Source: Erysipelothrix larvae (lineage in GTDB: Bacteria; Bacillota_I; Bacilli_A; Erysipelotrichales; Erysipelotrichaceae). From it: DNA of 32,000 bases. Positions 2,506-26,853 of this stretch are shown here, piece by piece. The notes beneath the pieces were generated by a model. That model saw only the letters and a list, made by a program, of their open reading frames with translations, did not search any database and had not been told where the DNA came from. A program made the translations under genes and the position numbers. The DNA lies in contig NZ_CP013213.1 of the NCBI RefSeq assembly GCF_001545095.1, forward strand, positions 1,920,001-1,952,000. The letters are read 5' to 3'. Numbering within the stretch: the stretch's first letter is position 1; each line of letters opens with the position of its first letter.

Positions 2506-2976
2506 ATGATAACAGTTTTCTCAAACACATTCAATAATAAACAGTTTTCTCAAAAGGAATATTACAAATTTCTCAATTCAATTAATCCAAAAACAATACC
2601 TTGTCCGTGCTGTTCAAAAACAGATACACTGATTCGTTATGGATACTATCCGAAAACCATAATTACTGGGCGATTAACCATTGTCGTAGAAATCGCACGT
2701 TTCTTTTGTAATCAATGTAAGAGAACTCATGCAATAATACCAAGTAACTTACTTCCCTATTTTCAACTGTCTGTACCCACAATTGAAATAATATTAACCC
2801 ATGAACTTGATAGCACGCTTTTAACTGATATTGATGAATCAACATATATTCGGATAAAAATACGTTTTAACGATTATGAATCGGTGAGACATTTAAGTTA
2901 TTTGGAACGATTGAATTACTTCATATTATCCACAAAACGGAATATCTATCATTCCGCCATTACTTCACCAACATGA
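2506..2976 (+). CDS. IS-encoded accessory protein with Cys4 zinc-ribbon (CPCC...CNQC); function unknown
   Basis: 156-aa ORF with SD AAAGGAG 8 nt upstream. Motif is IPCPCCSKTDTLIRYGYYPK...ARFFCNQCKRTHAIIPSNLLPYF. Conserved in both IS copies apart from one residue. Confidence 0.65.
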   Translation: MITVFSNTFNNKQFSQKEYYKFLNSINPKTIPCPCCSKTDTLIRYGYYPKTIITGRLTIVVEIARFFCNQCKRTHAIIPSNLLPYFQLSVPTIEIILTHELDSTLLTDIDESTYIRIKIRFNDYESVRHLSYLERLNYFILSTKRNIYHSAITSPT

Positions 2977-3109
2977 GAAAAATAGTTTTAACTCCTCAGA
3001 TTGAATATAATGAAGATGGTTATTTAAATAACAGACAATCATTTTTATATTTAGGAGCAAGATACATAATGAAACCTTATCAAAATAGTCAAAGAGAGGC
3101 AGGGTTTCT

Positions 3110-4585
3110 ATGAACGCTAATGCCACTCTTTTAAGTAACGAAAAAATTCTTGAATTATTTAACTTAGAACACCATCAAGTCCAGAAGATTGATATCAAAG
3201 GTCAAAGTGACGCATTGAATGTGTACATTACGCTTCAGGTAGAGGAACAAACATGCCCAATTTGTGAAAGCAAAACATCCACAATCAAAGATTATTCTGA
3301 AAAGAAGCTTCTCCACTCACTGGTAACACATATACCCTGTTACATTCGTTACCGTGCACGACGTTATAAATGCACAACGTGTAATAAATGCTTTTTTGAA
3401 CACAATCCATTTGCGTATCGAAATATGAAGATTACTCAGCTGACCGTATATAATGTCCTGAATGATCTTAAATCGCCACATGAAACGTTTACCACAGTTG
3501 CCAATAGATATCGGTTATCTCCCACTACAGTATCATCTATTTTCGATTCCCACGTTTCTGTCTCCAGACAAAAACTACCCGCTTATCTGCTTATTGATGA
3601 ATGTTATGCGTACCACAGTGATCGCAGTGATTATGTATGCGTTCTTATTGATGCAATGACAAAGAATATCGTAGATATATTACCGTCCCGTAAGAAACAA
3701 GACTTAGTCGCGTATTTTAGCCAAATCCCCCTTGAAGAACGCAAAGGAGTCTTAGGTATTGGAATCGACATGTGGTATAGCTATAGAGTCGTCGCAAAAC
3801 AATTCCTTCCAAACGCGTTTATCAGTGTTGATCGTTTTCATGTTTATAGTGATTTAATGAAACGTATCGACTCTATTAGGGTAGACACTATGAAGAAACT
3901 AAAACCTCCTAAGAACTGGAAGCAAACAGAAGATAAAGTCAAAAGACAAGAATATTATAAGCGTGACCAGCAATACTATCTGCTTAAAAAGTTCAACTGG
4001 TTACTCTATAAAAACCCCAAAGCAACAACCACAGTTAAAGATAAGAAATACAATATATTTGATCCAAATGTACCGAAACAACGCAATAAGAAATTGGGAA
4101 AGTTTCTAAACCTTTACGACATAATAGACCTAATTCTTCAAACGAGCAATGGCCTTGAAGATGCATATAACATGAAGTTCTTACTCGATCAATTCTTCAA
4201 TGAATCAAAAGCTGAGAATGCACACGAGAATCTGAACACACTCATCAGAGTGATGGCTCAGAGTAGAGTTGCATCAATCGTTGATTTTAGCCGAACTTTA
4301 GGAAAGTGGAAAAATGAAATTGTCGCAACTTTCAATAAAGTAGAAAAATGCACAAAGGTCACAAATAAGAAAACAGGAGAAACCCATTATGAAGTTTCCA
4401 TAACACACATAAACAGTGCGTTGATTGAGAATCGAAATCGCATAATCAAGCAAATAAAAAACAATGCAAGTGGCTATCGTAATTGGGAGCGGTTTAGGAA
4501 TCGTGTGTTGTATGTGCTTAATGAAGACGCAACATATCGAATTAACCCAATAATTAAAACAACCTATGACAAAGGACTCTCTTAA
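3110..4585 (+). CDS. ISL3-family DDE transposase
   Basis: N-terminal zinc finger CPICES...CTTCNKC. Candidate catalytic motifs are LLIDECYAY and GIGIDMWYSY. C-terminal ALIENRNRIIKQIKNNASGYRNWERFRNRV is the classic ISL3 E-containing signature. The element makes 8-bp TSDs as expected for ISL3. Confidence 0.92.
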   Translation: MNANATLLSNEKILELFNLEHHQVQKIDIKGQSDALNVYITLQVEEQTCPICESKTSTIKDYSEKKLLHSLVTHIPCYIRYRARRYKCTTCNKCFFEHNPFAYRNMKITQLTVYNVLNDLKSPHETFTTVANRYRLSPTTVSSIFDSHVSVSRQKLPAYLLIDECYAYHSDRSDYVCVLIDAMTKNIVDILPSRKKQDLVAYFSQIPLEERKGVLGIGIDMWYSYRVVAKQFLPNAFISVDRFHVYSDLMKRIDSIRVDTMKKLKPPKNWKQTEDKVKRQEYYKRDQQYYLLKKFNWLLYKNPKATTTVKDKKYNIFDPNVPKQRNKKLGKFLNLYDIIDLILQTSNGLEDAYNMKFLLDQFFNESKAENAHENLNTLIRVMAQSRVASIVDFSRTLGKWKNEIVATFNKVEKCTKVTNKKTGETHYEVSITHINSALIENRNRIIKQIKNNASGYRNWERFRNRVLYVLNEDATYRINPIIKTTYDKGLS

Positions 4586-9522: not shown

Positions 9523-9993
9523 ATGATAACAGTTTTCTCAAACACATTCAATAATAAACAGTTTTCTCAAAAGGAATATTACAAATTTATCAATTCAATT
9601 AATCCAAAAACAATACCTTGTCCGTGCTGTTCAAAAACAGATACACTGATTCGTTATGGATACTATCCGAAAACCATAATTACTGGGCGATTAACCATTG
9701 TCGTAGAAATCGCACGTTTCTTTTGTAATCAATGTAAGAGAACTCATGCAATAATACCAAGTAACTTACTTCCCTATTTTCAACTGTCTGTACCCACAAT
9801 TGAAATAATATTAACCCATGAACTTGATAGCACGCTTTTAACTGATATTGATGAATCAACATATATTCGGATAAAAATACGTTTTAACGATTATGAATCG
9901 GTGAGACATTTAAGTTATTTGGAACGATTGAATTACTTCATATTATCCACAAAACGGAATATCTATCATTCCGCCATTACTTCACCAACATGA
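9523..9993 (+). CDS. IS-encoded Cys4 zinc-ribbon accessory protein (copy B, Ile23 variant)
   Basis: Identical to the 2506-2976 product except L23I. Confidence 0.65.
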   Translation: MITVFSNTFNNKQFSQKEYYKFINSINPKTIPCPCCSKTDTLIRYGYYPKTIITGRLTIVVEIARFFCNQCKRTHAIIPSNLLPYFQLSVPTIEIILTHELDSTLLTDIDESTYIRIKIRFNDYESVRHLSYLERLNYFILSTKRNIYHSAITSPT

Positions 9994-10126
9994 GAAAAAT
10001 AGTTTTAACTCCTCAGATTGAATATAATGAAGATGGTTATTTAAATAACAGACAATCATTTTTATATTTAGGAGCAAGATACATAATGAAACCTTATCAA
10101 AATAGTCAAAGAGAGGCAGGGTTTCT

Positions 10127-11602
10127 ATGAACGCTAATGCCACTCTTTTAAGTAACGAAAAAATTCTTGAATTATTTAACTTAGAACACCATCAAGTCCA
10201 GAAGATTGATATCAAAGGTCAAAGTGACGCATTGAATGTGTACATTACGCTTCAGGTAGAGGAACAAACATGCCCAATTTGTGAAAGCAAAACATCCACA
10301 ATCAAAGATTATTCTGAAAAGAAGCTTCTCCACTCACTGGTAACACATATACCCTGTTACATTCGTTACCGTGCACGACGTTATAAATGCACAACGTGTA
10401 ATAAATGCTTTTTTGAACACAATCCATTTGCGTATCGAAATATGAAGATTACTCAGCTGACCGTATATAATGTCCTGAATGATCTTAAATCGCCACATGA
10501 AACGTTTACCACAGTTGCCAATAGATATCGGTTATCTCCCACTACAGTATCATCTATTTTCGATTCCCACGTTTCTGTCTCCAGACAAAAACTACCCGCT
10601 TATCTGCTTATTGATGAATGTTATGCGTACCACAGTGATCGCAGTGATTATGTATGCGTTCTTATTGATGCAATGACAAAGAATATCGTAGATATATTAC
10701 CGTCCCGTAAGAAACAAGACTTAGTCGCGTATTTTAGCCAAATCCCCCTTGAAGAACGCAAAGGAGTCTTAGGTATTGGAATCGACATGTGGTATAGCTA
10801 TAGAGTCGTCGCAAAACAATTCCTTCCAAACGCGTTTATCAGTGTTGATCGTTTTCATGTTTATAGTGATTTAATGAAACGTATCGACTCTATTAGGGTA
10901 GACACTATGAAGAAACTAAAACCTCCTAAGAACTGGAAGCAAACAGAAGATAAAGTCAAAAGACAAGAATATTATAAGCGTGACCAGCAATACTATCTGC
11001 TTAAAAAGTTCAACTGGTTACTCTATAAAAACCCCAAAGCAACAACCACAGTTAAAGATAAGAAATACAATATATTTGATCCAAATGTACCGAAACAACG
11101 CAATAAGAAATTGGGAAAGTTTCTAAACCTTTACGACATAATAGACCTAATTCTTCAAACGAGCAATGGCCTTGAAGATGCATATAACATGAAGTTCTTA
11201 CTCGATCAATTCTTCAATGAATCAAAAGCTGAGAATGCACACGAGAATCTGAACACACTCATCAGAGTGATGGCTCAGAGTAGAGTTGCATCAATCGTTG
11301 ATTTTAGCCGAACTTTAGGAAAGTGGAAAAATGAAATTGTCGCAACTTTCAATAAAGTAGAAAAATGCACAAAGGTCACAAATAAGAAAACAGGAGAAAC
11401 CCATTATGAAGTTTCCATAACACACATAAACAGTGCGTTGATTGAGAATCGAAATCGCATAATCAAGCAAATAAAAAACAATGCAAGTGGCTATCGTAAT
11501 TGGGAGCGGTTTAGGAATCGTGTGTTGTATGTGCTTAATGAAGACGCAACATATCGAATTAACCCAATAATTAAAACAACCTATGACAAAGGACTCTCTT
11601 AA
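10127..11602 (+). CDS. ISL3-family DDE transposase (copy B)
   Basis: 491 aa, identical to the 3110-4585 product. Confidence 0.92.
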   Translation: MNANATLLSNEKILELFNLEHHQVQKIDIKGQSDALNVYITLQVEEQTCPICESKTSTIKDYSEKKLLHSLVTHIPCYIRYRARRYKCTTCNKCFFEHNPFAYRNMKITQLTVYNVLNDLKSPHETFTTVANRYRLSPTTVSSIFDSHVSVSRQKLPAYLLIDECYAYHSDRSDYVCVLIDAMTKNIVDILPSRKKQDLVAYFSQIPLEERKGVLGIGIDMWYSYRVVAKQFLPNAFISVDRFHVYSDLMKRIDSIRVDTMKKLKPPKNWKQTEDKVKRQEYYKRDQQYYLLKKFNWLLYKNPKATTTVKDKKYNIFDPNVPKQRNKKLGKFLNLYDIIDLILQTSNGLEDAYNMKFLLDQFFNESKAENAHENLNTLIRVMAQSRVASIVDFSRTLGKWKNEIVATFNKVEKCTKVTNKKTGETHYEVSITHINSALIENRNRIIKQIKNNASGYRNWERFRNRVLYVLNEDATYRINPIIKTTYDKGLS

Positions 11603-17815: not shown

Positions 17816-17844
17816 ATAATATCACACTGTGTTAGCGTTTTCAA
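17816..17844 (-). promoter_or_regulatory. Sigma-A promoter for the EIIC gene (-35 TTGAAA, 17-nt spacer, -10 TATTAT)
   Basis: Read on the minus strand as TTGAAAacgctaacacagtgtgaTATTAT, about 55 nt upstream of the ATG. Confidence 0.55.
17830..17843. promoter_or_regulatory. Catabolite-responsive element (cre) candidate TGTTAGCGTTTTCA
   Basis: Fits TGWNANCGNTNWCA at every constrained position. It overlaps the -35 and spacer of the candidate promoter. Confidence 0.55.
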
Positions 17845-18326: not shown

Positions 18327-18421
18327 CAATCTCATGTGTCACTAAACAATCTGACACTTTAAACACTTAAATAAATGTTTTACCTCGAAATTATGTGGAA
18401 TAAATGAGTGAAAAAAAGAGG

Positions 18422-19201
18422 TTACTGATAAACCTCTTTGTAATGGTTAGGGGTCATCCCCATGTATTTTTTAAAGACAACACTGAAGTATCGTTGATCC
18501 CGATATCCAACACACTTCGCAACTTCATATATCATCAGGTTAGGATCTAGAAGCAGTTCACACGCAATCTTTATCCGGTAGATGGTCAGATACTCATGGA
18601 AACTAAAGCTTGTTTCAGACCGAAACAAACGACTCAATGAACTCTCCGATACATCCAAAATATCACAGCAATTCGATATGGATACTTCTTTAGCGTAATG
18701 TTCATGTATATAATCCAATGCTGCGATAATCTTCAAATGTTGACTGCGTTTACTTTTAGATAAGTACCGATCCATGGTATTCAACATATCATTTCGTGTT
18801 ACAGTTTGTTGTCGCTTCAGAGTTTGGAGTGCTTTTACATTATCCACTGCTTTGACTAAAGCATCATTCAACTGTTCATCACTAAAGGGTTTAATGAGAT
18901 AATCAACAGCACCATATTGCAAAGCTTTTTTGGCATATTCAAACTCACTAAATGCACTCATTACAATAAAGATTGACTCACCAGTTTGCGAGAGTGCTTC
19001 AATCATGTCCAGTCCATCCATAATTGGCATACGAATATCAGTCATGATAATATCTGGATTTAGTTTGTTTGCTAATGCAAGTCCTTCTTTACCATTGGAT
19101 GCTTCCGCAATGACTTCTAATCCCCATCGTTCCCAAGGTGTAGTGATAATCAAACCTTTCCGTGCAATCTTTTCATCTTCCACTACCAGTACACGAATCA
19201 T
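18422..19201 (-). CDS. Response regulator, REC plus AraC-type HTH (YesN-like)
   Basis: MIRVLVVEDE...DIIMTDIRMPIMDGL...YLIKPF forms the receiver. The C-terminal AraC HTH includes YEVAKCVGYRDQRYFSVVFKKYMGMTP. SD is GGGAGGAAG. Confidence 0.9.
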   Translation of the reverse strand: MIRVLVVEDEKIARKGLIITTPWERWGLEVIAEASNGKEGLALANKLNPDIIMTDIRMPIMDGLDMIEALSQTGESIFIVMSAFSEFEYAKKALQYGAVDYLIKPFSDEQLNDALVKAVDNVKALQTLKRQQTVTRNDMLNTMDRYLSKSKRSQHLKIIAALDYIHEHYAKEVSISNCCDILDVSESSLSRLFRSETSFSFHEYLTIYRIKIACELLLDPNLMIYEVAKCVGYRDQRYFSVVFKKYMGMTPNHYKEVYQ

Positions 19202-20903
19202 ATGCTTCCTCCCTACTTATTGGAATCTTGATATATACAACGGTTCCAATGTCCTTTTTGCTTTCCCACCACAAACCATACTGGTTTCCATAATGTAGTT
19301 TAATGCGGTGATTTACGTTTTGAAGACCAATCCCAGAATGTGAAATGTCTTCAAAACAGGCATCCGTTCCAACACCATTGTCTGCAACCGTTAAATACAA
19401 ATAATCATGGGTATCATCAACCCAACCACTCACTTCCACAATGCCTTTTCGATCCATCGGTTCAATGCCATGGATAATAGAGTTTTCAATGATAGGTTGT
19501 AAGATAAGTCGCGGTATTTGGATGCAATACGCTTCAGACTGAATTCCAAGCATGAAATTTAAACGGTCTTCATAGCGTATCTGTTGGATACTGATGTAAC
19601 TGGATACCATTTCGATTTCTTCTTCAAGGGTACAAAACTGATCTCGATTATTCATTGCACTCAATAATAAGACACTTAACTTTGTCACCATTTCTTGAAT
19701 GTCATCATATTCTTTAAGTTTTGCTTTCCACTTAATCGAATCCAAGGTGTTATTAATAAAGTGCGGGTTAATTTGCGACATCAAAGACTTAATCTCTGCT
19801 TGTCGCATCAAATCTTGTTTCTCCAAATTCAGTTTGTGATACTTTTCAATGCGATCAATTAACAAATCAAACTGATTGGATAGTCGTGAAATCTCATCCT
19901 TTTGATCCAAGATTTCCAGTGTGCTGTCATAATTTTTATAAGCGTTCATCTTGTTCACAAGACTATTGATGGGGGTCACAATGGATTGTGTGAGTCCGTT
20001 TCCAATATAGAACGATAAAATAATGGTTGTAATGATGAGTAAGACAATGAGTGATGCCAGCATCTTTCCTTGATCATATACCAATCGATTGTGAATCAAA
20101 CCATATATCTGATATCCATACGCTGCATTCTCAATGGTTTTCAACGTGTTCTCTTTTAATGATGATACCCCTGTGTTGGTACCATCTTGAGCCAATACAT
20201 TCTTTATAAGCCCAATGTTGTTGTAGAAGTAGGAATCATTATAGATTACCGTGTCATACTTTGAAGCCAAAATAAACTGAACATAACCATAGGATGTTCC
20301 CTTTACACTACTAAATAAAGATTGAATATATTCTGTTGACACATCAAGTATCAAATACCCGGTGTGTACATCGTCTTGTATCACACTGTATACAATGGAG
20401 TATGCATTATAAAATGAATCATTTACCTTATAAGCATTGGCATAAAAATGTGTGTCCTCATTTTGCGCGAAGCGATACACACCCCAATTCTTATTCGTCG
20501 GATATGAATACAGTTCAGGCAGTCGATCTGTGCCAACATGCTGACCACTTATACTGACATAATATAAATTCATCGCTCCTAAATCCCGATTTAATGTATG
20601 AAAAAACGCTGTCTCAATGCCTTTTTGTTGATCTGGAGTTATGGTTTCTTTCCCTATAAGGTCATGTTCCAATAGCGAATTTTTTAAGTTCTTTATGGTG
20701 AACTGTTGTGATTCAATGGTTGAACTTAAAATGTCATCTGCTGTTAAGAGTACTTCATCAAGGCGTTGAGTTAAACTCGTATTTGTTGTGCGCGTGATAA
20801 AGAACACCGAAAAAAAACCAAGTAGCAGTAAAGGAAGTATTGATGATAAAATAATCATCCACAATAATTTCCTTTTAATACTTTTCTTGGTTTTAATTTT
20901 CAT
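19173..20903 (-). CDS. Sensor histidine kinase, YesM/LytS-type (two TMs, large extracytoplasmic domain, HAMP, His_kinase, HATPase)
   Basis: H-box is QINPHFINNTLDSIKW. ATPase motifs are IIENSIIHG and DNGVG...GIGLQNV. The stop overlaps the regulator start by 29 nt. Confidence 0.9.
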   Translation of the reverse strand: MKIKTKKSIKRKLLWMIILSSILPLLLLGFFSVFFITRTTNTSLTQRLDEVLLTADDILSSTIESQQFTIKNLKNSLLEHDLIGKETITPDQQKGIETAFFHTLNRDLGAMNLYYVSISGQHVGTDRLPELYSYPTNKNWGVYRFAQNEDTHFYANAYKVNDSFYNAYSIVYSVIQDDVHTGYLILDVSTEYIQSLFSSVKGTSYGYVQFILASKYDTVIYNDSYFYNNIGLIKNVLAQDGTNTGVSSLKENTLKTIENAAYGYQIYGLIHNRLVYDQGKMLASLIVLLIITTIILSFYIGNGLTQSIVTPINSLVNKMNAYKNYDSTLEILDQKDEISRLSNQFDLLIDRIEKYHKLNLEKQDLMRQAEIKSLMSQINPHFINNTLDSIKWKAKLKEYDDIQEMVTKLSVLLLSAMNNRDQFCTLEEEIEMVSSYISIQQIRYEDRLNFMLGIQSEAYCIQIPRLILQPIIENSIIHGIEPMDRKGIVEVSGWVDDTHDYLYLTVADNGVGTDACFEDISHSGIGLQNVNHRIKLHYGNQYGLWWESKKDIGTVVYIKIPISREEAYDSCTGSGR

Positions 20904-20912
20904 AATACTCCC

Positions 20913-22568
20913 CTAAACAACTGATACCTTACCCTTACTTATTATACTAAATAACACAAAGGATAGTAAAGTAGCAAGTGTTAGGATACTAGCAAGCGCT
21001 GCAGCGGTACCAAAACTAGCTCGTACAACCTCAGTATAGATTGCGACTGAAATTGTAGCAGTTTTCCCAGTATATAGCATAATACTTGAACTCAGTTCAT
21101 TAATGGTACTAATCCAACTTAAGATTGCACCTGACACAATACCAGGTAGCATCAACCGTGCAGTAATTAAGAAGAATGATTTCATTGGGGACACCCCTAA
21201 ATTAATCGAAGCTTCTTCCACACTTTGATCCACTTGTTGAAGAATTGCACTGGATGACCGTACGGTAAAGGGCATTTTTCGAATGACATAGGCAATAATC
21301 ATAATGTAAGGAGTTCCTGCAAGTACGATTGGTCCTTTTTTAAATGCAAGTAGAAGACCAATTCCAAGGACTGCACCTGGAATAACATAAGGGAACATCA
21401 CCAATATATCAAGAATATCTGAACTCTTACTGCGACGTTTTGTGATAAGATACGCAATAATGATGCCTAAACCAATAATCAAGACAATCGCTACGGTTGA
21501 ATAGGTGAAGGTATTGCGAATGTTCATACCCAGTTTATAGAATATTGTTTGATAACTGTCTAAACTAAAGCCTTTCACAAATACCGGTCCATTAGTTTTT
21601 AAAAACGACGTATAGACCACAACAACCTGTGGTAAGAATGTAATGGATGTCACAATAAATACACCCAGAGTTAACAGAACTCTTGGGATGATTTTTAGTT
21701 GTTCAATCTTAGGAGGTCGAAGTGTACTCATCGTATATTGTTTTTTCGCAACAACTCGTTTTTGATATAAAAGTACTGAGAGTGAACAGCATACTACAAT
21801 AATACTGAGTGCAGATGCAAGTCCTGGGTTCCCCCCCATTTCACTCATAAACTCTTCATACACCAATACAGGCAATACTTTATATCCTTCACCAATTAGC
21901 ATTGGTGTTCCAAAGTCAGCAAGACTAGACATAAAGACCATGACAGCACCTGCCGCAATTGTTGGAAGGATTACTGGAAAGGTGACAGTCATCATGCGTT
22001 TCCACTTACTCATCCCTAAATTCTCAGCAGCTTCTTCCAATGAACTATCAATGCTATCCAAAGCTCCAGATACATACAAATACACATATGGGTATAGTTT
22101 CAGTGTAAAAACAAGAATGATTCCCCAAAACCCATAAATAGATGGGAAGTGGATTCCAAGCGTATCAAGAAAACGTGTAATGGTTCCATTTCTTCCAAGC
22201 AGTAAAATCCATGAATAAGCACCAATAAACGGTGGTGACAGTAACGACATAATAATCATCACATTCACAATTCGTTTACCCCATATATTATAGCGTGATG
22301 TGATATAGGCTAAAGGTACCCCAATAATCACTGCCCCTATGGTTGCACTTGCTGATACTTTCAAGGACCGAAATAAAGTCTCGTAGTAATACTTATATGT
22401 AAAAAATGTCTTGAAATTATCTAACGTAAACTCCCCTTCATAGGATAAGAAGCTTCTTCCAAACAGTGAAAAGAACGGATACATCAGAAAAATAGCAAAG
22501 ATTAGAAAAATCCCTATTTTCGCAAAGAACCAAAAATCAAGATTTCTTCGATTCAAAGTTTTACCCAT
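20913..22568 (-). CDS. ABC transporter permease, fused double-domain (FbpB/AfuB/ThiP type, about 12 TM)
   Basis: 551 aa with two BPD-type permease halves (…SLEEAAENLGMSKW… and …SVEEASINLGVSPM… EAA loops). Confidence 0.88.
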   Translation of the reverse strand: MGKTLNRRNLDFWFFAKIGIFLIFAIFLMYPFFSLFGRSFLSYEGEFTLDNFKTFFTYKYYYETLFRSLKVSASATIGAVIIGVPLAYITSRYNIWGKRIVNVMIIMSLLSPPFIGAYSWILLLGRNGTITRFLDTLGIHFPSIYGFWGIILVFTLKLYPYVYLYVSGALDSIDSSLEEAAENLGMSKWKRMMTVTFPVILPTIAAGAVMVFMSSLADFGTPMLIGEGYKVLPVLVYEEFMSEMGGNPGLASALSIIVVCCSLSVLLYQKRVVAKKQYTMSTLRPPKIEQLKIIPRVLLTLGVFIVTSITFLPQVVVVYTSFLKTNGPVFVKGFSLDSYQTIFYKLGMNIRNTFTYSTVAIVLIIGLGIIIAYLITKRRSKSSDILDILVMFPYVIPGAVLGIGLLLAFKKGPIVLAGTPYIMIIAYVIRKMPFTVRSSSAILQQVDQSVEEASINLGVSPMKSFFLITARLMLPGIVSGAILSWISTINELSSSIMLYTGKTATISVAIYTEVVRASFGTAAALASILTLATLLSFVLFSIISKGKVSVV

Positions 22569-23625
22569 TTAAGTTCACCTTACCTTCAGCGTCATAGATG
22601 TTGATCATTGCTTCATCAAGCTGTAGATAAACGTTGGTTTCTTTTCGTATTCCCATCCCATTTTGGGTGTACTCATTCACTTCAACAACATCTCCATTAT
22701 CCAGCTTAATTTCATAGTTCACAAAATCACCTAAGAAAGTCGCAAGAATAATGGTTCCTCTTAGTCCTACATTATTGGACGCAAATCTGAATTGCTCTGG
22801 ACGTACTGAAACTAAGATTTGATCCCCTTGGTTTCCTTTATTGGGTTTAGTTACTGTGTAATCGCCAATCACAAGTGTTTTAGAGTCTTTTACGACACCA
22901 TTTAAGAAATTAGAGGTACCAATAAAATTGGATACAAACTTGTTTTGTGGACTTTGATACAGCCGATCAGGCGCATCAATCTGTTCCACTTTACCCTTAT
23001 TCATTACCGCAATACGATCTGAAATCGCCAATGCTTCTTCTTGATCATGGGTAACATAGATGGTTGTGATATTGAGTTGTTTTTGAAGTTTACGAATGAT
23101 TGTTCTCATTTGAATCCGTAACTTTGCATCCAAATTACTCAATGGCTCATCCATCAGTAATATCTTAGGTTCAATAACGATGGCACGTGCAAGTGCAACC
23201 CGTTGTTGTTGTCCACCTGATAAGGCAGACGGCATACGATCTTTTAAATCAGAGATCTGAACAATGTCCAGAGCCTTCATAATGCGCTCATGGGCTTTAT
23301 CTTTTGGTACTTTTCGTGCTTTGAGTCCATATCCTACATTGTCATAGATTGAAAGATGTGGGAACACTGCATAGTTTTGAAACACCATACCGATGTCACG
23401 CTTATGCGCTGGCATATCGTTGATTTTCTTATCCCCAAAATAGATGCCCCCTTGTTCAATACTGTTGAACCCTGCAATCATACGCAGTAGTGTAGTTTTA
23501 CCACATCCACTGGGACCCAGCAAGGTAAAAAACTCACCTTCTTCAATTGTGATAGACACATCATCGATGGCTTTGAATGTTCCATAATATTTCACTGTAT
23601 TTTTAATTGCTACATCTACACTCAT
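22561..23625 (-). CDS. ABC transporter ATP-binding protein (FbpC/PotA/AfuC type with C-terminal TOBE-like domain)
   Basis: Walker A is GPSGCGKTT, the signature is LSGGQQQRVALARA, Walker B is ILLMDEPLS. Overlaps the permease gene by 8 nt. Confidence 0.92.
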   Translation of the reverse strand: MSVDVAIKNTVKYYGTFKAIDDVSITIEEGEFFTLLGPSGCGKTTLLRMIAGFNSIEQGGIYFGDKKINDMPAHKRDIGMVFQNYAVFPHLSIYDNVGYGLKARKVPKDKAHERIMKALDIVQISDLKDRMPSALSGGQQQRVALARAIVIEPKILLMDEPLSNLDAKLRIQMRTIIRKLQKQLNITTIYVTHDQEEALAISDRIAVMNKGKVEQIDAPDRLYQSPQNKFVSNFIGTSNFLNGVVKDSKTLVIGDYTVTKPNKGNQGDQILVSVRPEQFRFASNNVGLRGTIILATFLGDFVNYEIKLDNGDVVEVNEYTQNGMGIRKETNVYLQLDEAMINIYDAEGKVNLNG

Positions 23626-23650
23626 AATTCATATTCCTTCCCTAATACAA

Positions 23651-23669
23651 AAAGAGGAACTCCCTCTTT
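23651..23669 (-). terminator. Intra-operon hairpin after the binding-protein gene (AAAGAGG / CCTCTTT then TTG)
   Basis: 7-bp stem and 5-nt loop in the 51-nt gap between the binding-protein stop and the ATPase start. Confidence 0.35.
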
Positions 23670-23676
23670 TCGTTAA

Positions 23677-24693
23677 CTATTCACCTACAACAATATCTTT
23701 CCATTGTTTAAGGATTGCGTCTTTATCCATTGCAGCCCAGTCAAAGTCATAATCAACCAACTTAATATCTGCTAATGGTATTAATCCTTCAGGCGCTTTC
23801 GCATCTTTACGAATTGAACGGCGACTTAATTCTGATGACATAATTTCTTGTGTTTCTGTACTGAGTACAAAATCCACAAATTTCTTCGCATTGTCTAGGT
23901 TTTTCGCGTCTTTAATAATCGCAACACCATCTGGAATTGCTGAAGTGCCTTCCTCTGGGTAAACTATTTTCACAGGAGCACCACTTGCAACATATTTAAC
24001 TGCTTCTTTTTCAAGTGTTAATCCCAATGCATATTCCCCATCTGCAACACCTTTGTAGACACCTGATGAACTGGTAAGAATCTTGCCATCAAGGTTTGCA
24101 TAAAATTGTTTCATAAAGTCCCAACCTTTACCATCATCTTTACCAAAGGCTTGGATCATGGTTGCCATAATCGTATATGCTGAACCGCTTTTCGCAGGAT
24201 CTGCCATCGCGATTTGACCTTTAAATGCTGGATTTAAGACATCATTCCATGATGTCGGTGCATCACTTTCAGATACCAAGTTTGTATTATACATTAATAC
24301 CATTGGTAATGGACTTTCCCCAATCCATTTGAATGCTGGATCATAATAGATACTATCAATATTCTTAAGTTCTGGTGATTCATAAGCTTCAAAGTAGTCT
24401 GTATAGGCAGCTAATGATTCAGCGCCTCCACCCCACAATACATCACCTAAAGGTTGCCCGTCTTCTGATTCAACACGTTTTAGAAGTTCGCCAGTTCCTG
24501 CTGCAACTACATCCACCTGAATCCCTGTTTTCTCTTGGAATTCCTTAACAATTAAGTTAATGGTTTCTGCAGGGTGTGGTGAATAAAGTGTGAGCGTATT
24601 GCTTTCTTTATCCCCTGTACCTGATGATGATCCACAGGCACTCAATAATGATAAACACAACACCAATGTGAACGCTTTAATAATTCGTTTCAT
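23677..24693 (-). CDS. ABC substrate-binding lipoprotein, AfuA/FbpA/TbpA-like (solute-binding family 1)
   Basis: Lipobox is LLSACGSS. At 338 aa it matches the size and composition of the Fe3+/thiamine/sugar-phosphate SBP cluster. It is partnered with a double permease. Confidence 0.8.
   Translation of the reverse strand: MKRIIKAFTLVLCLSLLSACGSSSGTGDKESNTLTLYSPHPAETINLIVKEFQEKTGIQVDVVAAGTGELLKRVESEDGQPLGDVLWGGGAESLAAYTDYFEAYESPELKNIDSIYYDPAFKWIGESPLPMVLMYNTNLVSESDAPTSWNDVLNPAFKGQIAMADPAKSGSAYTIMATMIQAFGKDDGKGWDFMKQFYANLDGKILTSSSGVYKGVADGEYALGLTLEKEAVKYVASGAPVKIVYPEEGTSAIPDGVAIIKDAKNLDNAKKFVDFVLSTETQEIMSSELSRRSIRKDAKAPEGLIPLADIKLVDYDFDWAAMDKDAILKQWKDIVVGE
24667..24680. promoter_or_regulatory. 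cre-like site TGTGAACGCTTTAA inside the first codons of the binding-protein gene (13 of 14 constrained and free positions compatible; one mismatch)
   Basis: Fits TGWNANCGNTNWCA except at position 13 (A instead of C). Confidence 0.25.
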
Positions 24694-24853
24694 AGTTCCT
24701 CCCTCGCAAACGCTTTCAGTTTACACAACTAGAATAACACATACAAAAACACTTGAGAACGCGACAATCCAGTCAATATGTTCAAATTTCGAGCAGGTCA
24801 TTGCGTAAGTTTTCATGTCCGTGTAAAAATAAGCATTAAAGAGGAGGAGCATT

Positions 24854-26248
24854 ATGATTCAATTTGGAACTGGAGGCTGGCGTGCAATCATTGGCGATGG
24901 CTTTACAAAAGAAAATGTACAAAAACTCGCACAATCCGTTATCCCTGAACTCAACAATAAGAAAGCTGTGGTAATTGGCTATGATCGGCGTTTCTTATCA
25001 GACATCGCTTCAAAGTGGCTTGCGGAAGTATTTATCGGTAATCATGTTAAGGTATACTTTATGAACGCAGCAGCGCCTACACCCTTAGTCATGTTTGCTG
25101 CCATGAAATACGATGTAGACTATAGCTTTTCGATAACCGCAAGTCATAATCCAGCCGTATATAACGGGATAAAAATCTTTACAAAAGGGGGCCGTGATGC
25201 GACGGAAAAAGTGACACAAAAGCTCTCACAAAATTTAGAACACTTGGCACCTGTACAGTCAATGGATTTTGATAAAGGATTAAAAGAAGGTCGTGTGGAA
25301 ATCATTCAACCTAAGAATGAATACATTGATCATATCTTGAACTTTATTGATGGGGATACAATTCGCAAACGAAATCTGCGCATTCTTGTGGATACAATGC
25401 ATGGGGTATCCAAGACAACACTTTCAATTATCTTAAATACAGTACGCTGTGATGTGGATATTATTAACGATCGACATGACACACTATTTGGAGGCAAACT
25501 ACCAGCTCCTACCTCGCAAACACTCAATAAACTCAGTGATATGGTCAAAGAGAATCATTATGACTTAGGGATTGCTACCGATGGTGATGCAGACCGTATT
25601 GGGATTGTGGATGAGTATGGAAATTACATTCATCCCAATCTACTCATCTCATTGATTTATCAGTATCTATTGGAGGAAAAAGGATGGAAAGGGCCTGTGG
25701 TACGAAACCTTTCTACGACACATCTACTTGATCGTATTGCGAAAGAACACGGTGAAAAATGCATTGAAACACCCGTTGGGTTTAAACACATTTCTTCTGC
25801 TATGCAACAACACCAAGCCATTATTGGTGGTGAATCCAGTGGTGGACTCACAATACGTGGTCATATCAATGGGAAAGATGGAATCTTAGCTGCAAGTATC
25901 TTGGTTGAAATGATTGCAGTTACTAACAAAACGATTCATGAATTGGTTAAAGACCTCTATGCACGGTATGGTTCATGTTATAATGAAGAAAGAGACTACA
26001 GCTTCTCAAACGAAAAGAAAAACGCGTTAATTCATACATTATTTGAACTTAAAGAAATTCCAACGATGCCCTTACCAATTAAAACGGTAAGCTATCTTGA
26101 TGGTTTAAAGATTGTGTTTGAAGATGACTCATGGGTAAGCGCACGCTTTTCAGGCACTGAACCACTCTTGCGCATCTTTGCAGAAGCAGGTTCTAAAGAG
26201 ACTGTAGATTCCTTAGTTAAAACAATGGAAGGATTCTTACAACTATGA
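24854..26248 (+). CDS. Alpha-D-phosphohexomutase family enzyme (phosphoglucomutase/phosphomannomutase-like)
   Basis: Catalytic Ser loop is TASHNPAVYNG, metal loop is DGDADR, sugar loop is GGESSGG, phosphate loop is RFSGTEPLLR. SD is GAGGAGGAG. Confidence 0.9.
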   Translation: MIQFGTGGWRAIIGDGFTKENVQKLAQSVIPELNNKKAVVIGYDRRFLSDIASKWLAEVFIGNHVKVYFMNAAAPTPLVMFAAMKYDVDYSFSITASHNPAVYNGIKIFTKGGRDATEKVTQKLSQNLEHLAPVQSMDFDKGLKEGRVEIIQPKNEYIDHILNFIDGDTIRKRNLRILVDTMHGVSKTTLSIILNTVRCDVDIINDRHDTLFGGKLPAPTSQTLNKLSDMVKENHYDLGIATDGDADRIGIVDEYGNYIHPNLLISLIYQYLLEEKGWKGPVVRNLSTTHLLDRIAKEHGEKCIETPVGFKHISSAMQQHQAIIGGESSGGLTIRGHINGKDGILAASILVEMIAVTNKTIHELVKDLYARYGSCYNEERDYSFSNEKKNALIHTLFELKEIPTMPLPIKTVSYLDGLKIVFEDDSWVSARFSGTEPLLRIFAEAGSKETVDSLVKTMEGFLQL

Positions 26249-26853
26249 TTAAAAACATGATCTTTGATATGGGAAATGTGCTCATGTCATTTTCACCCGA
26301 ATACATCTTAAGTCACTTTACACAAGACCTTGACACGATCAAAGTCCTTAAGGAATCCATCTTCTATTCAGGGTTATGGGCAAGCTTGGATAATGGTGAT
26401 GTCAGCTTTGATGACGCATGTGAGGTTGCATTGAAACGCTGCCCTATGATAGACCCTGCCATCATCAAAGAGCTCTTCTCGACATGGTATCACTATAAAA
26501 TAGAAGATAAGTCAATGACTGAACTTGTGAAAAAACTTAAAGAACACGGGTATAAGATCTATCTTTGTTCAAACGCAGCACCCCTGTTTCATACCTATAA
26601 AGATACCTATGATGTCTTTCAATACTTTGATGGCTTACTCATATCTGGCGATATTAACATATCAAAACCAGATAAAGCAATCTATGAATATCTTTTGAAC
26701 CATTTTGATATCATAGGCCAAGAGTCTTTGTTTATTGATGATTCACTGGCAAACATTCAGGCTGCTTCATCCCTTGGTATTCATACATTTCACTATACAG
26801 GAAGTCTTGAGGCTTTTAAAAAAACCCTTCACAACTTAAACTTACTGCCATAA
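26245..26853 (+). CDS. HAD-superfamily phosphatase, subfamily IA, YihX-like (candidate sugar-1-phosphate phosphatase)
   Basis: Motif I is FDMGNV (D-x-G as in E. coli YihX FDLGNV), motif II is CSNA, motif III is KPD, motif IV is FIDDSLANI. ATGA overlap with the mutase gene. Confidence 0.75.
   Translation: MIKNMIFDMGNVLMSFSPEYILSHFTQDLDTIKVLKESIFYSGLWASLDNGDVSFDDACEVALKRCPMIDPAIIKELFSTWYHYKIEDKSMTELVKKLKEHGYKIYLCSNAAPLFHTYKDTYDVFQYFDGLLISGDINISKPDKAIYEYLLNHFDIIGQESLFIDDSLANIQAASSLGIHTFHYTGSLEAFKKTLHNLNLLP

Follow-up and report, generated by a model that had tools for sequence, protein, structure and literature searches.

The seven genes at positions 18422–26853 of a 32,000 nt window of the Erysipelothrix larvae genome (contig NZ_CP013213.1, assembly GCF_001545095.1), the window being the whole stretch of DNA that was analysed, form a module that, on balance, probably serves the catabolite-repressed, substrate-induced uptake and processing of an extracellular sugar phosphate, with the binding protein of its ABC transporter probably signalling to the neighbouring sensor kinase. 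The most likely class of cargo is a hexose phosphate, either of the glucose 6-phosphate (G6P), Gal6P or Man6P type or a hexose 1-phosphate. The gene arrangement is far beyond chance, being shared by dozens of genomes that belong to several orders.

Gene organization, conservation and control elements

Five of the genes lie on the minus strand. These encode, in order of transcription, a lipoprotein substrate-binding protein (23677–24693; 338 aa; SBP_bac_6/8/11, cluster D; lipobox LLSAC with Cys20), an ABC ATPase (22561–23625; 354 aa; ABC_tran and a C-terminal TOBE_2 domain), a fused double permease (20913–22568; 551 aa; two BPD_transp_1 halves in a PhnU2/ThiP-like architecture), a sensor histidine kinase (19173–20903; 576 aa; TM1, dCache, TM2, HAMP, His_kinase PF06580 and HATPase) and a response regulator (18422–19201; 259 aa; REC and AraC-type HTH in a short YesN/HptR-like form). 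The binding-protein and ATPase genes are separated by 51 nt, the ATPase and permease genes overlap by 8 nt, the permease and kinase genes are 9 nt apart and the kinase and regulator genes overlap by 29 nt. On the plus strand, the divergent genes for an α-D-phosphohexomutase (24854–26248; 464 aa; PGM_PMM I–IV) and a HAD-IA phosphatase (26245–26853; 202 aa; YihX-like motifs) overlap by 4 nt, and translation of the phosphatase is coupled to that of the mutase. The initial annotation was right about the positions of all seven ORFs and their junctions, of the hairpin and lipobox, of the mutase loops and of the YihX-type HAD motif, and its domain calls for all seven proteins were borne out by domain profiles. 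A GGGGAG ribosome-binding site precedes the kinase start at 20903 by 4 nt; the database gene call starts 15 codons later, with a weaker ribosome-binding site. No other PF06580 kinase is encoded in the genome.

Synteny was compared across 61 informative related loci from Erysipelotrichales, Clostridia, Spirochaetes and Bacilli. Genes for the binding protein, ATPase, permease, kinase and regulator occurred together in nearly all of them, and outside the Bacilli the mutase was present in 34 of 42 loci and the HAD phosphatase in 32 of 42. The view that the transporter, the YesMN-type two-component system, the mutase and the HAD phosphatase form a linked unit therefore extends to related loci, where they constitute a conserved module. 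In 12 loci the mutase gene had the same strand as the operon and lay 3′ of the binding-protein gene. Its placements in those loci were between the permease and kinase genes, after the regulator gene or directly after the binding-protein gene. Genes for a nucleotidyltransferase were present at 14 loci, and five to six had a bona fide GalE gene; in E. larvae itself a nucleotidyltransferase homologue lies 133 kb away beside Fe-ADH, an uninformative context.

A terminator-like hairpin with a T-run (18415–18439, minus strand; a 9-pair stem followed by TTTTTCAC) overlaps the stop codon of the regulator gene and is likely to mark the end of the five-gene operon. The hairpin noted earlier in the 51 nt gap proved to be real (23647–23673, minus strand; 11-pair stem, −13.8 kcal/mol, z = −2.4), and a stem–loop of differing sequence occupied the same junction between the binding-protein and ATPase genes in most related loci; it is probably a partial terminator or an mRNA stabilizer through which the binding protein is made in excess. 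A cre-like (CcpA) site (24705–24718, minus strand; TGAAAGCGTTTGCG) closely precedes the ribosome-binding site of the binding-protein gene. In ~18 related loci, against ~1 expected, such a site lies no more than ~120 nt ahead of the same gene, and this conservation marks the module as one of carbon catabolism. A generic promoter scan did no better than shuffled sequence (40 found versus 34.7 expected), and promoter elements were taken from cross-species alignment instead. This alignment suggested a candidate extended −10 element of the operon promoter (24731–24741, minus strand; TGnTATTCT) that appears to be kept among the Erysipelotrichales loci, and a putative conserved upstream box (24772–24790, minus strand; consensus approximately ATATTAAACAnnTTGAC), which may bind the regulator, serve as the −10 element of the mutase promoter on the other strand, or do both.

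The binding protein and the two enzymes

In phmmer searches of the PDB the binding protein was closest to VcA0625 and AfuA, with E-values of the order of 1e-39 (3e-39 for AfuA), followed by P5PA (1e-35) and HptA (6LKG/6LKI; of the order of 1e-28, 4e-28 being the value obtained), and iron binders gave 1e-21 or weaker. Foldseek searches with its structure model (pLDDT 88.5) returned AfuA or VcA0625 at ranks 1–6 (TM 0.76–0.84) and HptA at rank 8; AfuA, VcA0625 (‘G6P binding protein’), P5PA and HptA were all ranked above every FbpA, HitA or FutA entry. The protein belongs to the AfuA/VcA0625/P5PA/HptA clade. The initial annotation had argued against iron transport and had proposed modelling the protein for comparison with AfuA and FbpA. 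That comparison placed the model nearer the AfuA-type sugar-phosphate binders than FbpA, HitA or FutA, and the argument is upheld by the fact that the closest solved relatives bind phosphorylated organic ligands, namely hexose 6-phosphates for AfuA, VcA0625 and HptA and PLP for P5PA, with iron binders scoring lower.

The phosphate-contacting residues Ser37 and Thr150 of AfuA align with T67 and S171, neither of which varies in the alignment of the family. The triad H205/D206/E229, the sugar-coordinating motif that defines AfuA homologues (Sit et al. 2015, PMC4546632), aligns with K229/E230/I253, in which only the acidic position is conservatively kept. The description ‘AfuABC-like’ thus holds for the fold and the operon type but not for the sugar motif, and because the triad is not kept the AfuA ligand set, including G6P and F6P binding, cannot simply be transferred. 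Residues T67, S171, E126, E228-K229-E230 and D255 make up the putative pocket. E228, an acidic residue at position 230, D255 and an RSIRKD motif are shared with HptA, the ligand residues of which were derived from alignment motifs only; RSIRKD is absent from the transport-only AfuA, and the sugar-side region around the AfuA triad appears, from its sequence, to resemble HptA more. Position 230 is Ala in P5PA (VHA) and acidic here (E230), as in AfuA and HptA. The pocket positions co-varied with the mutase among related loci, E126/K229 types having a mutase and F126/E229 types lacking one.

The mutase possesses the domains PF02878/79/80 and PF00408 and four intact catalytic loops (TASHNP, DGDADR, GGESSGG and RFSGTEPLLR), in agreement with its annotation as a complete phosphohexomutase, and its best PDB matches were phospho-sugar mutases (E 4e-63). 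It is one of three paralogues in the genome, the third, dedicated one, and the sugar loop GGESSGG was invariant in its orthologous group. Motif I of the HAD phosphatase, IFDMGNV, aligns with IFDLGNV of YihX, and motifs I–IV all align. Both enzymes scored far below the NCBIfam equivalog cut-offs (62.8 versus 295 bits for YihX, NF006991; 324 versus 439 bits for archaeal GlmM), so that their substrate specificities are not fixed by homology.

Proposed route and alternative readings

In the mechanism that we propose, the lipoprotein would capture a phosphorylated sugar by means of phosphate-binding hydroxyls as in AfuA and a sugar-side set of its own, partly HptA-like, and would pass it on for import by the fused permease and ATPase. 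By analogy with the docking of HptA on HptS, the loaded binding protein probably also docks on the dCache domain of the adjacent kinase, which would phosphorylate the AraC-type regulator. The regulator would then switch on the back-to-back promoters predicted in 24694–24853, and with them both the transporter/sensor operon and the divergent mutase–phosphatase pair, whilst in the presence of preferred sugars CcpA would repress the module via the cre site. Inside the cell the dedicated mutase would interconvert 6-phosphate and 1-phosphate, with hexose 1-phosphate as the hub, and the YihX-like phosphatase could hydrolyse hexose 1-phosphate, either to serve as a safety valve or to liberate free sugar. 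The nucleotidyltransferase and GalE of related genomes would turn hexose 1-phosphate into NDP-sugar.

The initial annotation had put forward a route from 6-phosphate via 1-phosphate to free sugar plus Pi. This is one possibility only, as the sugar-1-phosphate nucleotidyltransferase and GalE genes of related loci point to a hexose-1-phosphate hub feeding NDP-sugars, and the cargo may itself be an imported hexose 1-phosphate. To our knowledge, catabolism of G6P, F6P, M6P or GlcN6P needs no mutase, so that the real cargo may be a less obvious one. A more specific version of the proposal is offered tentatively, as a possibility: a single binding protein would both feed the importer and trigger the dCache kinase, in a ‘complete’ relative, possibly an ancestor, of HptASR, and the E126/K229 pocket may take a hexose phosphate that is routed through hexose 1-phosphate (e.g. 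galactose-6-P or hexose-1-P).

A credible, if rather unlikely, alternative to signalling by the binding protein is that the kinase itself senses the ligand, in a pocket of its dCache domain, the sole task of the binding protein being transport and the two-component genes being co-located for co-regulation, as for many YesMN systems next to sugar ABC importers. As a rule, dCache domains bind small ligands themselves, in the membrane-distal module. The extracytoplasmic dCache domain of the kinase (residues ~37–282) matched the fold of tandem Cache domains (Z 18.6), and Foldseek and VIA-align searches with the sensor-domain model gave generic dCache matches, the top ones being ligand-binding chemoreceptor or kinase sensors. 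Its near-invariant residues P129, Y132, W140, G141, Y183 and D187 (full-length numbering) could line a pocket, which, together with the binding habit of such domains, would allow direct sensing. The HptS sensor domain was not matched by the kinase sequence at E ≤ 1 in phmmer searches of the PDB, in which the cytoplasmic His_kinase fragment 6SWJ was the only match, and was absent from the best 50 Foldseek or VIA-align matches of the sensor model; for these reasons specific orthology with HptS is not claimed. Direct sensing sits less well with the homology of the binding protein to HptA, which is the G6P sensor of a kinase of the same architecture (PMC8050422, PMC8774646), with the RSIRKD motif that the two have in common and with one related locus (L031) in which a binding protein of the same clade (63 % identity) directly precedes the kinase and regulator genes without ABC genes of its own, an arrangement like that of HptASR.

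We consider it improbable that the cargo is a non-sugar phosphorylated or phosphonate compound (2-aminoethylphosphonate, pyridoxal-5-phosphate, thiamine phosphate or glycerophospho-compounds) to which the mutase and HAD phosphatase are loosely related. The top NCBIfam models of the three ABC parts were those of the putative 2-aminoethylphosphonate system PhnS2/PhnT2/PhnU2 (TIGR03261/03265/03262), but all three scores were below the cut-offs (180.7 versus 392.75, 392.6 versus 457.7 and 196.7 versus 593.25 bits, respectively) and a profile search of the genome found neither PhnX nor PhnW over cut-off, and the phosphonate reading was set aside on these grounds. The PLP binder P5PA is almost as near a relative as AfuA, and the lack of the AfuA sugar triad would also suit such a cargo, whereas E230 sides with AfuA and HptA. 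Moreover, the phosphohexomutase with its invariant loops is tightly kept with the transporter, inside the operon at some loci, the nucleotidyltransferase and GalE genes adjoin some loci and cre control is typical of carbon sources. The ferric-iron FbpABC-type transporter of the automatic annotation is scarcely credible. Homologues are labelled ‘iron(III) transport system substrate-binding protein’ and the fold is common to FbpA, HitA and FutA, but iron binders were clearly more distant than organophosphate binders, and the context comprises cre, mutase, HAD phosphatase and YesMN-type system, no Fur-type context having been seen at the locus. In addition, the segment aligned with H205/D206 of AfuA reads LEKE and contains no Tyr–Tyr pair; we take this segment, by rough position and not by residue-level alignment with FbpA, to be equivalent to Tyr195/Tyr196 of FbpA.

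With uptake of a sugar phosphate and signalling by the binding protein as the preferred reading, the module points to a coherent family for phosphate-ester uptake and sensing in Bacillota and Spirochaetes, thousands of homologues of which are still labelled ‘iron(III) transport’. Loci that possess or lack ABC genes, or differ in pocket type, offer natural intermediates for how binding proteins become dedicated sensors, and the presence of a dedicated mutase, a phosphatase, a nucleotidyltransferase and GalE suggests that imported sugar phosphates may meet a fate as yet unexplored. [quoted passage not shown] In practical terms, the locus supplies a candidate pair of inducible promoter and sensor, as well as a new binding scaffold for sugar-phosphate biosensors.

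Comparison with known systems

AfuABC is a hexose/heptose-phosphate ABC importer of Actinobacillus pleuropneumoniae and Citrobacter rodentium (PDB 4R72–4R75) that binds and transports G6P, F6P and S7P (PMC4546632). Together with Vibrio cholerae VcA0625 (8X1A), it provided the best match in both sequence and structure (cluster D binding protein, ~30 % identity, TM ~0.8). As in AfuABC, the operon encodes a binding protein, a single ATPase and a fused double permease; the phosphate contacts are kept and both systems are commonly misannotated as iron transport. The E. larvae system differs in its replaced sugar-coordinating triad, in that its binding protein is a Gram-positive lipoprotein, and in that its operon also carries the kinase and regulator and is tied to a dedicated mutase and HAD phosphatase. 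The YesMN systems beside carbohydrate ABC importers of Bacillota likewise have a PF06580 kinase and a REC–AraC regulator adjoining a sugar-uptake ABC operon; here, however, the transporter is of the FbpA/AfuA/ThiB type with a fused permease and not of the CUT1 type, the regulator is the short 259 aa form and the cargo is predicted to be phosphorylated. The phosphatase shares HAD motifs I–IV, with the unusual DxGNV motif I, with the α-D-glucose-1-phosphate phosphatase YihX of E. coli (PDB 8PNO), and the mutase shares the four catalytic loops with archaeal-type PGM/PMM mutases (PDB 1WQA, 9DU5 and 1TUO); the equivalog scores of the two enzymes, for YihX and archaeal GlmM, are low.

The closest functional analogue of the module is the three-component G6P sensor HptASR of Staphylococcus aureus (PDB 6LKG–6LKL), which the initial annotation had not mentioned. 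In that system an AfuA-like binding protein senses the ligand for HptS, a dCache kinase that works with an AraC-type regulator (PMC8050422, PMC8774646), and hptRS is reported to be under CcpA control (PMC6291074), as the cre site suggests for E. larvae. The HptA-homologous binding protein, with the E-x-D/E, xDG and RSIRKD motifs in common, is encoded with the kinase and regulator in both systems and in the same order, the kinase consisting of a dCache sensor, HAMP and a LytS/YesM-type His_kinase and the regulator being of the short AraC type. In contrast to HptASR, E. larvae has a full ABC permease and ATPase between the binding-protein and kinase genes, so that its binding protein is not a dedicated sensor, and phmmer detected no match between its kinase and the sensor domain of HptS at E ≤ 1. 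The divergent partner also differs, being the mutase–phosphatase pair and not uhpT, the antiporter gene targeted by HptASR; no transporter of the UhpT/GlpT family was found over cut-off in the E. larvae genome. A limited literature search found no paper linking AfuABC-type transporters with HptRS/YesMN systems, which is no proof of novelty. The module looks like a hybrid of an AfuABC transporter and an HptASR sensor, and joins transport and sensing systems that have so far been studied apart.

Gene layout and genome setting

The five minus-strand genes encode a response regulator (18422–19201), a kinase (19173–20903), a fused permease (20913–22568), an ATPase (22561–23625) and a binding protein (23677–24693). 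Regulator and kinase overlap by 29 nt and permease and ATPase by 8 nt; 9 nt separate kinase and permease, and 51 nt the ATPase and binding-protein genes. On the plus strand, divergent from this operon, the genes for a phosphohexomutase (24854–26248) and a HAD hydrolase (26245–26853) overlap by 4 nt. The ORF map matched the coordinates and junctions of the initial annotation exactly, and its domain assignments were all borne out by Pfam and NCBIfam. All four of the mutase catalytic loops it described were found, and the HAD motif I that it had likened to YihX (IFDMGNV) aligned with IFDLGNV of that enzyme. The hairpin noted in the 51-nt gap was recovered as an 11-pair stem (23647–23673, −13.8 kcal/mol, z −2.4), and a stem-loop of different sequence was present at the same junction in most related loci. 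A further hairpin, terminator-like in form, overlaps the stop codon of the regulator gene, a GGGGAG ribosome-binding site precedes the kinase start at 20903 and the binding protein has a lipobox ending at Cys20.

The nearest homologues were found among the Erysipelotrichaceae, Erysipelothrix included; the binding protein shares 78 % identity with its E. tonsillarum counterpart. Within the 2.51 Mb assembly the module kinase is the sole PF06580 (LytS/YesM-type) kinase, and the mutase is the third paralogue, the other two being of 449 and 558 aa. No UhpT/GlpT-family antiporter scored above the cut-off in this genome. Elsewhere in the window, two ORF pairs of matching lengths (156 and 491 aa; 2506–4585 and 9523–11602) lie 7017 bp apart, each with a 99-aa antisense ORF, and look like a duplicated mobile element.

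Conservation across related loci

A family-alignment scan of species-representative genomes yielded 80 loci, onto which the window proteins were mapped by tblastn and in which all neighbouring ORFs were clustered; gene content was counted in the 61 loci with enough flank. The ATPase, permease, kinase and regulator accompanied the binding protein in 11/11 loci of the Erysipelotrichales, in 26–28 of the 29 from Clostridia and other Bacillota and in both of the Spirochaete loci. Among the 19 Bacilli loci, in which the kinase and regulator lie upstream, the ATPase, permease and regulator were present in 18–19 and the kinase in 16.

Outside the Bacilli, the mutase was found in 34 and the HAD in 32 of 42 loci. 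The mutase gene was divergent and upstream in 21 loci; in 12 others it was on the operon strand, 3′ of the binding-protein gene, where it separated permease from kinase, came behind the regulator or, at locus L053, immediately followed the binding-protein gene itself. A gene that shifts position in this way behaves as a functional partner would, not as a chance neighbour. The mutases fall into a single orthologous group (TASHNP in 43/44, GGESSGG in 42/44), and FDxGNV is kept in the HADs of the related loci. A divergent sugar-1-phosphate nucleotidyltransferase related to PDB 3PNN was present in 14 loci, and GalE exceeded the NCBIfam cut-off in five or six. The nucleotidyltransferase lies in or beside the module (L004:16380–18312, L018, L020, L021 and L049–L057), often adjoining a bona fide GalE; in the genome of the window, a 42 %-identical copy adjoins an Fe-alcohol dehydrogenase 133 kb away (L085).

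The binding-protein pocket and predicted cargo

The best solved sequence relatives of the binding protein were VcA0625 of V. cholerae and AfuA of A. pleuropneumoniae (E about 1e-39), followed by the pyridoxal-5-phosphate binder P5PA (1e-35) and S. aureus HptA (1e-28). A Foldseek search with the AlphaFold model (pLDDT 88.5) gave AfuA, VcA0625 (‘G6P binding protein’), P5PA and HptA, the same order as the sequence ranking. In AfuA, Ser37 and Thr150 are phosphate ligands, and H205, D206 and E229 are essential sugar ligands (Sit et al., PMC4546632). HMMER alignments matched the phosphate ligands to T67 and S171, which are invariant across the family alignment, and the sugar triad to K229, E230 and I253. 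Together, the ranking of relatives and the ligand alignments place the binding protein, as judged from sequence and model, in the organophosphate-binding clade of cluster D. The published AfuA sugar motif, however, is absent. HptA reads E-Q-D in the sugar-triad region where the binding protein reads E-K-E, and the two share D255 (xDG) and an RSIRKD motif, both of which AfuA lacks; the sugar side of the pocket therefore appears distinct and partly HptA-like.

Residues at the putative pocket positions vary together with gene content. Where the binding protein has E126 and K229, a mutase is almost always encoded nearby; with the Bacillus/Paenibacillus type (F126, E/D229, A230) it never is, and the locus has an additional binding protein plus a PP2C phosphatase in its place. 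In this variant (L060–L080; Bacillus, Paenibacillus and related genera), which has neither mutase nor HAD, the kinase lies upstream together with a long regulator (about 530 aa), and the additional binding protein, which is unrelated to the first (SBP_bac_1/8, about 407 aa), follows the permease with the PP2C-type phosphatase, about 4–6 kb downstream of the binding-protein start. The different pocket signature suggests that the Bacilli variant has another ligand.

The accessory enzymes of the family (mutase, YihX-like phosphatase, nucleotidyltransferase, then GalE) all act on or produce hexose-1-phosphate, which is thus the likely metabolic hub. Catabolism of G6P, F6P, M6P or GlcN6P does not need a mutase, which points to a cargo that is less obvious. 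The cargo could be a 6-phosphate dependent on the mutase, for instance Gal6P, also a ligand of HptA (PMC8050422), or could equally be a 1-phosphate; the route from 6-phosphate via 1-phosphate to free sugar and Pi proposed in the initial annotation is one option among several.

A well-supported functional prediction is that extracellular sugar phosphate would be imported by the ABC system and that the same binding protein probably reports it to the dCache kinase, whereupon the module would induce itself and the divergent mutase–phosphatase pair, with CcpA overriding induction. The main alternative, which we regard as possible but doubtful, is that the dCache domain senses the ligand directly and the binding protein serves transport only. 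At locus L031 the genes for a dCache kinase and a regulator come immediately after that for a 63 %-identical binding protein, without cognate ABC genes, as in HptASR. A non-sugar organophosphate or phosphonate as cargo is unlikely given the module context; neither PhnX nor PhnW scored above the cut-off in the genome. Iron transport is very unlikely: ferric-iron binders matched the binding protein at 1e-21 or weaker, HitA, FbpA and FutA followed only after HptA in the Foldseek search, and there is no Tyr-Tyr pair in the segment aligned with the AfuA sugar-triad region, estimated by rough position to correspond to FbpA Tyr195/Tyr196.

Sensing, regulation and comparison with HptASR

The kinase comprises TM1, an extracytoplasmic domain of about 245 residues, TM2, HAMP, His_kinase and HATPase. 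The sensor-domain model has a tandem Cache fold (pLDDT 88, Z 18.6 to PscC), and PF02743 is present in kinase homologues. Divergence is much faster in the kinase than in the binding protein: their nearest homologues are 45 % and 78–82 % identical, respectively, and those in Clostridia 26–28 % and 55–65 %. At two loci, methyl-accepting chemotaxis proteins, one with a dCache sensor and one of PilJ type, directly follow the regulator (L031:13561–15720, minus strand; L053:18000–19676, plus strand), which hints at a possible further role of this ligand or binding protein in chemotaxis.

Alignment of the DNA that separates the binding-protein gene from the mutase gene in Erysipelotrichales revealed four conserved elements: an upstream box (about ATATTAAACAnnTTGAC, 24772–24790), a TTGT-type −35, an extended −10 (TGnTATTCT, 24731–24741) and, directly before the ribosome-binding site, a cre-like element (TGAAAGCGTTTGCG, 24705–24718). 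Matches to the relaxed cre pattern number only three in the whole 32-kb window, yet about 18 of the 80 loci by our own tally, against an expectation of about one, have a match upstream of the binding-protein gene at a distance of up to about 120 nt. This excess points to CcpA control of the module, which fits a carbon source. A second cre-like match (TGAAAACGCTAAC, 17831–17843, minus strand) lies in the promoter region of an orphan EIIC gene of cellobiose type that is located downstream of the operon, so the neighbouring sugar genes also look CcpA-controlled.

All parts of the module are from known families and its logic has precedents. No paper joining AfuABC-type transporters to HptRS/YesMN sensing was found in the literature searched. 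In S. aureus, the AfuA-like HptA, once it has bound G6P, links two dCache-like HptS sensor domains to each other and activates the AraC-type regulator HptR, which turns on uhpT (PMC8050422, PMC8774646). No specific similarity between the kinase and HptS sensor domains could be shown by phmmer (E ≤ 1) or among the top 50 structural matches, and the likeness is therefore one of architecture. The three components of HptASR recur in the window operon in unchanged order, but here a complete ABC permease–ATPase set separates the binding-protein gene from that of the kinase. The predicted CcpA control parallels the reported repression of hptRS/uhpT by CcpA in S. aureus (PMC6291074).
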